Source: Escherichia phage vB_Ec_DUEC01
Length of the DNA stretch: 43,949 bases
Sequence record: PQ799475.1
Strand: one strand, 5' to 3'
The notes below the pieces were generated by a model that saw only the letters and a program-made list of their open reading frames with translations, did not search any database and was not told the origin of the DNA. The translations under genes and the position numbers were made by a program. The number at the start of each line of letters is the position of its first letter. Within the stretch, counting starts at the first letter, position 1. Positions 12,311 through 13,627 of the stretch are shown piece after piece.

Positions 12311-12500
12311 TGTTAACTCTCTTAAATCGGGCTATGCCTGACTCGTTAATGTCGCCTATTTCAAAGAAGCTGCGATATTTAGGCGAATACATTCTTACGT
12401 CGCCATTCTCTAGGGTTATTCCTTCATATACAGCACCTACTTGGAACCCATTTTTCTCTGCGTACGGGCTCACATTGGTGCATTCATACATGTCTCTCAT
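12300..12500 (-). CDS. hypothetical protein (66 aa)
   Basis: RBS GGAGA; ATGA overlap with upstream phosphoesterase gene. Confidence 0.45.
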   Translation of the reverse strand: MRDMYECTNVSPYAEKNGFQVGAVYEGITLENGDVRMYSPKYRSFFEIGDINESGIARFKRVNSDK

Positions 12501-13627
12501 CCCAGCATCTCCGGTGAAATAGTTAAACGTGCAACCTCGCCATATTCGGCGCTATAAGTAATTACATTTGCACTACGGCCCGACATCCACCCTCCGCGGG
12601 AAGCATATGCATCTTTCGCCGCGAGAGTGCGATGTTGTTCCACTACCATATTCCTACTTTCTACAATCTTTTGATGGTGGAGATGCCCGACATGTGCGTA
12701 ACTGTACTCGCTTTCGCCAAATGCTTTTCTGAACTTAGCTATCATAATGGGCTCGACCACATCAAACCGGCATTTATGTCCGTGGGTAAAGAACAGCGTC
12801 GTTTTGCCGTGTCGCACCATCTTGTAAACATCCGGCGACGTATCGACGAATACACGAGGCTCGTTGTCGTACAGCGTACTGAACATCTCAGCTAACCAAA
12901 TCATTCCGCTTTCGTCGTGGTTCCCTTGCACGATAAGCAGGCGAACATTTTTGTGCTTAACGAGAGCCATATCGACGACACGGCGTACCATACGAATCAT
13001 GTAGCGGACCAGTTTCTGATAGCGCGTGTCAGCGTCAAGAACATGACCACTTGCAGGCGTAACGGCATCCAGACTATCGAAGTGCGCAAGGTCGCCAAGC
13101 AGGCTAATAACTCCTGTTCCCGCGTCTGGTGCTTTCTGGAACGCTGCGTCAAACCAACGGGAGAACAGGTCTTCCGCAATCTTCATGTCCCAGTCGTCGC
13201 CGCTCTCGTCAGCCCAGGCCAGCATACCTAGATGGAAATCAGACACAGTGTAAAGATTGAGCAGTTTATCGTCGCGTTTGGCTCGAACGGCTTTAACAGG
13301 CGCAACGGGCGTAATCTCTGACTTCATGCCCTCGATTACGGCTTTCATCAACTCGACCTGACGTTCGGCGTCGGTATCAGTCTTAACCCATTGCAGCTTA
13401 GTGTTGCCAAACTCGTCCACAAGTGACGATGTTCCTTTAATCTTGTAGCCGTCCGGCACAAGATGGCTCACGTCGCGCCCGTGGCCCACGCCTTTCTTAG
13501 CCAGCTTCGCTTTACGGATGCGAATAACGCGGTCGGAGATGCCGTATTTACGGGCTATATCGATAGTTTTAACTCCGGCGTTTAATTCTTCCTGTAACTG
13601 TTCGTCGGTTATTTTCTTCCGGGCCAT
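12497..13627 (-). CDS. HTH domain - calcineurin-like metallophosphoesterase fusion
   Basis: N-terminal helix-turn-helix-like segment (TIDIARKYGISDRVIRIRKAKL); phosphoesterase motifs DFH, GDLAHFD, GNHDE, HGH, GHLHH in canonical order. Confidence 0.7.
   Translation of the reverse strand: MARKKITDEQLQEELNAGVKTIDIARKYGISDRVIRIRKAKLAKKGVGHGRDVSHLVPDGYKIKGTSSLVDEFGNTKLQWVKTDTDAERQVELMKAVIEGMKSEITPVAPVKAVRAKRDDKLLNLYTVSDFHLGMLAWADESGDDWDMKIAEDLFSRWFDAAFQKAPDAGTGVISLLGDLAHFDSLDAVTPASGHVLDADTRYQKLVRYMIRMVRRVVDMALVKHKNVRLLIVQGNHDESGMIWLAEMFSTLYDNEPRVFVDTSPDVYKMVRHGKTTLFFTHGHKCRFDVVEPIMIAKFRKAFGESEYSYAHVGHLHHQKIVESRNMVVEQHRTLAAKDAYASRGGWMSGRSANVITYSAEYGEVARLTISPEMLG

Follow-up and report, generated by a model that had tools for sequence, protein, structure and literature searches.

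The DNA considered here is a stretch of 43,949 nucleotides from Escherichia phage vB_Ec_DUEC01 (PQ799475.1), referred to at its full length as the window, which represents an essentially complete genome of a Kagunavirus (Guernseyvirinae). Its gene at 12497-13627 encodes a protein in which an N-terminal helix-turn-helix (HTH) domain is followed by a metallophosphoesterase (MPE) catalytic domain. An earlier interpretation based on the letters alone (the sequence-only reading) had described one 376-residue open reading frame (ORF) joining an HTH-like segment to a metallophosphoesterase without naming its strand; this description is confirmed, and the frame lies on the minus strand. The protein possesses the MPE fold, an intact metal site and an HTH, belongs to a large phage family (PHROG 704) and is encoded within a small minus-strand operon, and it is interpreted here, with moderate confidence, as a metal-dependent DNA nuclease of the Mre11/SbcD/DP1-like branch, solitary and anchored by its HTH. 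The gene and its parts are as follows.

12497..13627, minus strand: coding sequence of the HTH-MPE protein, 376 residues plus stop, ATG start, taken from the ORF list
13633..13639, minus strand: Shine-Dalgarno-like GAGGAAG, 6 nucleotides upstream of the HTH-MPE ATG, read from the sequence
13493..13627, minus strand: basic three-helix HTH domain, residues 1-45, from modelled helices, family profile matches and charge
13298..13459, minus strand: linker consisting of a family-specific beta-hairpin (residues 61-85, with G74 and W80 near-invariant) and then a long helix (87-104), from the model and conservation
12500..13273, minus strand: MPE catalytic domain, residues 119-376, with no capping domain after it
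13232..13240, minus strand: motif I, D130-F-H132, in a Mre11-like DxHLG context (SDFHLG); D and H invariant; aligns to Mre11 'SDWHLG'
13076..13096, minus strand: motif II, G178-D-L-A-H182-F-D184, Mre11-like GDLxH; G and D invariant, H182 in 132/136 and D184 in 128/136 sequences; aligns to Mre11 'GDLLHS'
12911..12925, minus strand: motif III, G235-N-H-D-E239; N236 and H237 invariant
12776..12784, minus strand: motif IV, H282-G-H284; H282 invariant, G283 in 135/136
12674..12688, minus strand: motif V, G314-H-L-H317-H; G314 and H317 invariant, H315 in 130/136

Conservation was assessed in an alignment of 136 sequences, comprising the query and 135 representatives of 50%-identity clusters that are 31-49% identical to it. 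In this alignment D130, H132, G178, D179, N236, H237, H282, G314 and H317 are invariant, while H182, D184, D238 and H315 are conserved in at least 90% of the sequences, and because key residues are maintained to this degree the five motifs are not chance matches. All five motifs named in the sequence-only reading (DFH, GDxxHxD, GNHDE, HGH and GHLHH) were recovered, at residues 130-132, 178-184, 235-239, 282-284 and 314-318, so that the DxH, GDxx[DH], GNH[DE], H and GHxH blocks of the MPE superfamily are all present. Its supposition that the motif histidines form a metal site also holds, since the site is intact and each of its ligands is invariant or at least 95% conserved.

The structure was obtained as an alignment-based AlphaFold (AF2) model with a predicted local distance difference test score (pLDDT) of 92.8, a single-sequence AlphaFold model being unusable (pLDDT 45), and it shows the beta-sandwich MPE fold. 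The Pfam gathering thresholds were not reached by the protein, with Metallophos_2 (PF12850) at 24.7 bits against 27 and Metallophos (PF00149) at 18 against 21.5, and Pfam alone would thus overlook its MPE domain. Precomputed PF12850 or PF00149 matches are nevertheless present in some proteins that are 96-98% identical to it and in some distant relatives, and the shortfall reflects model sensitivity and is not evidence against the MPE fold.

The N-terminal segment is modelled as three helices (8-16, 21-28 and 32-44; pLDDT 79-94) and carries a net charge of +7 with an isoelectric point (pI) of 10.3, whereas the remainder of the protein is acidic; across the family the N-termini have a median pI of 9.2, and 84% are positively charged. 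When the N-terminus of this protein was searched alone, only sub-threshold HTH matches were obtained (GerE, E 0.25; FixJ, E 0.08), with no Pfam family at E <= 0.01. It can be aligned to the N-termini of its relatives, and among 38 family N-termini Pfam matches were found to HTH_1 (22/38), HTH_28 (13/38) and HTH_8 (11/38), the best E-values being 4.8e-11 for Sigma70_r4_2 and 1.2e-9 for GerE. A profile of the family N-termini, when compared with solved structures, matched HTH domains of LysR/NtcB, DesR, sigma factors, GerE and Cro, with E-values between 2e-5 and 1e-3. At the family level the fold is therefore a tri-helical HTH of the LysR, LuxR-GerE, sigma-70 region 4 or Fis type, and the DNA-binding type of fold proposed for this segment is borne out by the modelled helices together with the family-level profile matches; binding to DNA itself is a prediction, the indirect evidence for it being the charge of the segment. 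Public annotation pipelines name proteins that are 95-96% identical 'winged helix-turn-helix domain-containing protein', and one relative 'DNA-binding CsgD family transcriptional regulator'. The Campylobacter Fletchervirus homologues (about 317 residues) lack the HTH and start at the hairpin region, at about residue 65 of the query, and hence not every member of the wider family possesses the HTH.

The protein matches PHROG 704 ('DNA repair exonuclease', a computational annotation) at E 3.5e-165, with residues 4-375 aligned to profile positions 2-389 of 390. Homologues were detected by tblastn in 2040 of 50,697 phage records (about 4%), at least 80% of the protein being covered in 1958 of the 2040, and these records span Guernseyvirinae, Drexlerviridae (T1-like phages and Webervirus), phages of Vibrio, Rhodobacter, Ruegeria (N4-like), Erwinia (Autographiviridae) and Campylobacter, and others. 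In a whole-library HMMER search, 4693 cluster representatives (50% identity) reached E <= 1e-3 and 1148 reached E <= 1e-30, most of them being 370-420 residues long. The sequence-only reading had regarded a DNA-binding domain on such an enzyme as unusual, a view refuted by the full-length PHROG match and by these numbers of records and cluster representatives, given that HTH plus MPE is a standard and already annotated phage architecture. In phage T1, gp16 (ST16) is a full-length orthologue, with 45% identity (E 3e-116) and the HTH included, and a 2026 pangenome analysis found the gene in 508/522 Drexlerviridae, where it is a core gene. GenBank labels for the gene include phosphoesterase, DNA repair exonuclease and winged-HTH protein, and the structural neighbours of the protein in BFVD are all uncharacterised phage proteins.

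Close to the query, public data hold proteins with 98% identity, and the DNA of 11900-14000 is 86-92% identical to that of E. coli phages LM02P1, Snoke, Schulenburg and others. Some database entries with 96% identity (P0037, P0042, P0051) have 406 residues in place of 376, presumably as a result of an alternative upstream start call, since the good Shine-Dalgarno sequence in the window belongs to the ATG at 13627. The gene has also been annotated as two or more fragments, among them BFVD entries Q45PV2 (Jk06), L7TMI9 (phiJLA23), A0A0N7CGC6 (Salmonella phage 36) and F4YXL3/F4YXL6 (RDJL Phi 1); the N and C halves of the family have PHROGs of their own (20703/20762), and the representative library also includes family proteins of about 205 residues (P0122, P0157). 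Such split annotations may stem from frameshifts or sequencing errors, or the splits may be genuine.

With regard to the branch of the superfamily, the sequence-only reading had held that the MPE motifs alone do not reveal the substrate, with which we agree; placement was sought by fold and by profile. In a fold comparison of the model the highest values were obtained for the PolD DP1 proofreading exonuclease (16.1), SbcD (15.1) and Thermotoga maritima Mre11 (15.0), followed by LpxH (13.9), MJ0936 (13.6), other Mre11 structures (13.2-13.6) and Rv0805, a cyclic nucleoside monophosphate (cNMP) phosphodiesterase (12.3), with the protein phosphatases PP5 (9.2) and PP1 (8.6) lowest; Foldseek gave the same mixture of fold matches. 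When a profile of the catalytic domain was searched against 177,635 distinct PDB sequences, T. maritima Mre11/SbcD was the sole significant match (E 4.8e-4) and a single-stranded DNA endonuclease, 'Nuclease MPE', came second (E 0.25), with no phosphatase and no cNMP phosphodiesterase among the matches. The alignment pairs Mre11 'SDWHLGvtsW' and 'GDLLHS' with 'tDlHlGmlaW' and 'GDflHiD' of the family. The whole protein (phmmer) found nothing meaningful in the PDB; a whole-length profile yielded sub-significant HTH and Mre11 matches, and the profiles obtained by dividing it into domains yielded significant ones. Comparison by hhalign of the catalytic-domain profile with single E. coli SbcD and CpdA sequences aligned one motif each, at about 3% probability. 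A histidine three residues past the motif II aspartate is a hallmark of Mre11 nucleases, most other MPE branches having an aspartate at this position, and the HTH-MPE family carries the Mre11-type histidine (H182, 132/136). By fold ranking and profile search the protein most resembles the Mre11/SbcD/DP1-like nucleases, rather than the lambda-phosphatase-like or CpdA-like subfamilies that the earlier reading had also considered.

The surroundings of the gene in other phages were drawn from about 14 individually inspected loci, and the picture is anecdotal to that extent. In Drexlerviridae the order is helicase, dam, small ORFs and the MPE gene, often followed by genes for polynucleotide kinase (PNK), deoxynucleoside monophosphate kinase or an SH3 protein, and then by lysis genes; PNK after the MPE gene has been described for many members of this family (PMC13164509). 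Erwinia phage S2 has 5'-3' exonuclease, endonuclease, MPE, PNK and ligase in this order, and in Campylobacter phage PC14 (L007 4998-5951) an MPE gene lacking the HTH directly follows a DNA ligase gene. A Ruegeria N4-like phage shows dCMP deaminase, thymidylate synthase and then MPE, and in RcPescado lysis genes and the MPE gene are followed by a methylase and ThyX on the opposite strand. Among metagenomic phages, the gene is found near gp59 and gp32 in one, near PhoH, DnaB, DnaG and ligase in another, after NinG in a third, and between tail-fibre and endolysin genes in others. Two contexts thus recur, namely DNA or nucleotide metabolism and a location where the late or lysis genes meet the replication genes.

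Immediately downstream of the MPE gene, HNH homing-endonuclease genes are present in T1 (ST15, L021 42028-42510) and in Jerseyvirus Ent1 (gp22, L009 4671-5171), and mobile endonucleases may have inserted at this locus repeatedly. DNA methyltransferase genes lie near the MPE gene in T1, SLUR29 and RcPescado (L021 39024-39737; L002 3453-4178; L006 6559-7842), and the window has one (phrog_363) at 26337-27131 on the minus strand, about 13 kb from the MPE gene. These methyltransferases might be relevant if the putative nuclease tells phage from host DNA.

Within the window, the HTH-MPE gene occupies the second place in a five-gene cassette on the minus strand, flanked on one side by the tail-tube gene (10714-11886) and on the other by the tail assembly chaperone gene (14024-14440), both on the plus strand. 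The remaining features of the cassette are listed here.

13898..13926, minus strand: sigma-70 promoter-like site ATCACA-17-TATAAT ahead of the cassette, from a consensus scan (10/12 matches)
13666..13872, minus strand: Imm-type superinfection immunity gene (imm), 68 residues, upstream of HTH-MPE; PF14373 at E 9.3e-13, phrog_1039 at E 1.1e-22
12300..12500, minus strand: small ORF of 66 residues directly downstream of HTH-MPE; 'hypothetical' in phages Snoke and Schulenburg
12080..12310, minus strand: small ORF of 76 residues with a GTG start; phrog_2452 at E 8.6e-37, C-terminal part only
11914..12129, minus strand: third and final small ORF, of about 52 residues from a probable ATG at 12072; no family match
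11891..11910, both strands: bidirectional terminator, a GC-rich hairpin closing both the cassette and the tail-tube gene, from a terminator scan; annotated on both strands in Snoke

The promoter-like site is only suggestive, as the number of such sites is no higher than expected by chance. The stop codon of the HTH-MPE gene overlaps the ATG of the 66-residue ORF (ATGA, 12497-12500), and the latter overlaps the 76-residue ORF by 11 nucleotides (12300-12310); these overlapping junctions suggest translational coupling across the operon. The succession of imm and MPE is also found in Snoke, Schulenburg and Jerseyvirus Ent1, and in Jerseyvirus and other Kagunavirus phages it likewise lies between genes for the tail tube and the tail chaperone. 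The Imm protein has 68 residues here, 109 in Snoke and Schulenburg and 59 in Ent1, and because only a 42-residue Imm_superinfect core is common to these versions, its N-terminus appears to be variable or its start sites to be called differently. The 76-residue ORF matches just the C-terminal 60-70 residues of longer PHROGs (phrog_2452, 235 residues; phrog_17613, 'ATPase') and looks like a stand-alone version of a small domain which other proteins carry in fused form. A defence-system identity was considered for the cassette and rejected, as neither the HTH-MPE protein nor its four neighbours matched any PADLOC-DB model at E <= 0.1. Elsewhere in the window, a 418-residue ORF (31123-32379, minus strand) matches phrog_69 ('exonuclease') at E 4e-123 and is 'hypothetical' in Schulenburg; a T7 gp2.5-like single-stranded DNA-binding and annealing protein lies near it (30223-30849, minus strand), and the two probably constitute a phage recombination module separate from the MPE gene.

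Of the two possibilities raised in the sequence-only reading, a DNA-targeted nuclease or an enzyme degrading host signalling nucleotides, the first is favoured on account of the fold matches to DP1, SbcD and Mre11, the sequence link to Mre11/SbcD with its GDLxH motif, and neighbours in DNA and nucleotide metabolism; the second finds no support. We infer from this that the activity is that of a nuclease, with DNA as its substrate and a role in the phage's handling of DNA. The protein would be a stand-alone two-metal phosphodiesterase of the Mn2+/Mg2+ type, most likely acting on DNA, on which the basic N-terminal HTH would hold it. The catalytic domain would hydrolyse phosphodiester bonds with D130, H132, D179, N236, H282, H315 and H317 as metal ligands, and H237 and the Mre11-type H182 would help to position and stabilise the scissile phosphate. 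Transcription is proposed to occur from the gene's own minus-strand operon (imm, HTH-MPE and three small ORFs), apart from the flanking plus-strand tail genes. The most likely role would be in phage DNA or nucleotide metabolism, either as host-chromosome breakdown that feeds nucleotide salvage or, alternatively, as processing of DNA ends or intermediates. Phages T1 and TLS break down the host genome and recycle its nucleotides, and the authors of that study could not identify the responsible gene (PMC11447400). In T5, degradation of host DNA requires the pre-early protein A1, which also suffices for it; A1 is a predicted metallophosphatase with resemblance to nucleases of double-strand-break repair and of proofreading (bioRxiv 10.64898/2026.04.02.716235). 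It could be envisaged by analogy that the PHROG 704 family is the host-chromosome-degrading nuclease of T1-like phages, a second independent MPE-fold solution comparable to A1, with the HTH loading the enzyme and phage DNA being spared by a mark such as might come from the phage methyltransferases often encoded close by; this more specific proposal is tentative and, on balance, unlikely.

Several observations weigh against a DNA nuclease of this branch. The margins in the fold ranking are small, and the Mre11 sequence match is weak (22.8 bits) and limited to motifs I-II. The protein ends at the MPE core, so that the C-terminal capping domain and the Rad50/SbcC-binding region of Mre11/SbcD are absent, and no Rad50/SbcC gene was found among the neighbours, the annotated genes of Snoke and Schulenburg or the larger minus-strand ORFs scanned; for want of both cap and partner, the protein is not a true Mre11. 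Other nucleases are already encoded by the source phage, namely a recombination exonuclease (phrog_69) and a VRR-NUC enzyme. The MPE gene is often beside lysis genes, and it also occurs in at least one phage contig with integrase and excisionase genes, lying there between lysis genes and the integrase, neither of which is obviously predicted by an early nuclease that destroys the host genome. T5 A1 is not a close relative, and therefore the link to it is one of analogy only. Finally, literature searches on the family gave genome-annotation mentions only, with no biochemical or genetic experiment found on any member.

Among the rival explanations, the one that survives best is a nucleic-acid end-healing phosphoesterase that would strip 3'-phosphates, 2',3'-cyclic phosphates or other blocks from broken DNA or RNA alongside PNK and ligase, with no cutting of DNA. 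In bacterial Pnkp, end-healing chemistry of this kind is performed by a calcineurin-type phosphoesterase domain, and PNK and/or ligase adjoin the gene in Erwinia S2, Campylobacter PC14, one metagenomic phage and the many Drexlerviridae mentioned above. However, neither PNK nor ligase is annotated in the Kagunavirus relatives Snoke and Schulenburg, and the T1 PNK gene is far from gene 16, which leaves end healing as an improbable function of the protein. Still less probable is an anti-defence phosphodiesterase directed at cyclic mono-, di- or oligonucleotide signals (as in CBASS, Pycsar, type III CRISPR or Thoeris-like systems) or at another second messenger, with the HTH serving, for example, in autoregulation. 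The moron-like cassette that the gene shares with a superinfection-immunity gene in Guernseyvirinae would suit such a function, but its neighbours elsewhere are DNA metabolism genes and not anti-defence islands, cNMP phosphodiesterases fall below nucleases in the fold ranking and show no sequence match, motif II is the Mre11-type GDLxH and not the GDxxDxG that is usual in other MPE enzymes, and a small-molecule hydrolase would need no basic HTH such as most members keep. The remaining candidate, a Ser/Thr/Tyr protein phosphatase (lambda-PPase-like) or chiefly a transcription regulator with a ligand-sensing or ligand-modifying phosphoesterase domain, is very improbable in spite of HTH types typical of transcription factors (LysR, LuxR/GerE, sigma region 4, Fis) and MPE motifs common to the phosphoprotein phosphatases (PPP), because the sequence reads SDFHLG and GDLAHFD where PPP enzymes have GDxHG and GDxVDRG, and every metal ligand is invariant or nearly so, as expected of catalysis and not of a degenerate sensor domain.

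Few phage genes whose function has yet to be defined by experiment are as widespread as the HTH-MPE family, and Drexlerviridae and Guernseyvirinae are widely used in phage therapy. Should the protein be a nuclease that degrades host DNA or serves nucleotide salvage, the question left open for T1 and TLS would be answered, and it would be possible to predict which genome-breakdown-sensing defence systems such phages trigger. Roberts and Drexler reportedly found in 1981 that transduction is improved in mutants of T1 with a defect in degrading host DNA, and for this reason such a function would also bear on transduction risk. The importance of these results resides in the size of the family and in the testable link to T1, the copy in the source genome adding little by itself because the gene and its architecture are already catalogued.

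In comparison with known systems, the protein shares with Mre11/SbcD (T. maritima 3qg5/2q8u; S. aureus SbcD 7dog) the core motifs DxHLG and GDLxH at 13-18% identity, and differs from them in its N-terminal HTH and beta-hairpin, which are foreign to Mre11. Identity to the archaeal PolD small subunit DP1, a 3'-5' proofreading exonuclease (5ihe), is 12%, with an HTH at the N-terminus instead; a DP1 identity was rejected, as the combination of an oligonucleotide-binding (OB) fold and a phosphodiesterase domain in complex with DP2 is not what is seen and there is no DP2 partner, the source phage having a family A polymerase and T1 no polymerase gene. The class III cNMP phosphodiesterases (CpdA, Rv0805) and the lambda-type PPP phosphatases have the superfamily fold and metal-ligand motifs in common with the protein, yet the former are not its closest relations in fold or sequence and their GDxxDxG is not its motif II, and the latter (lambda PPase, PP1) are likewise not the closest in fold, their set of GDxHG, GDxVDRG and GNHE signatures not being found in the protein. 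T5 A1 is also a phage-encoded, partner-less predicted MPE-fold protein and offers a functional analogue for the host-DNA-degradation hypothesis, but it has 556 residues, belongs to phrog_1745 (its sole PHROG match) and is restricted to Demerecviridae; kinship with it was rejected, since hhalign gave a probability of 16% over 20 columns, just the GNHD..S.WL stretch being aligned, and the PHROGs differ. Jerseyvirus Ent1 gp23, the Kagunavirus 'phosphoesterase' genes and T1 gp16, by contrast, belong to the same PHROG 704 family with no material difference, and the HTH-MPE protein of vB_Ec_DUEC01 thus adds one more protein to a phage family that is known and catalogued, its architecture not being novel.

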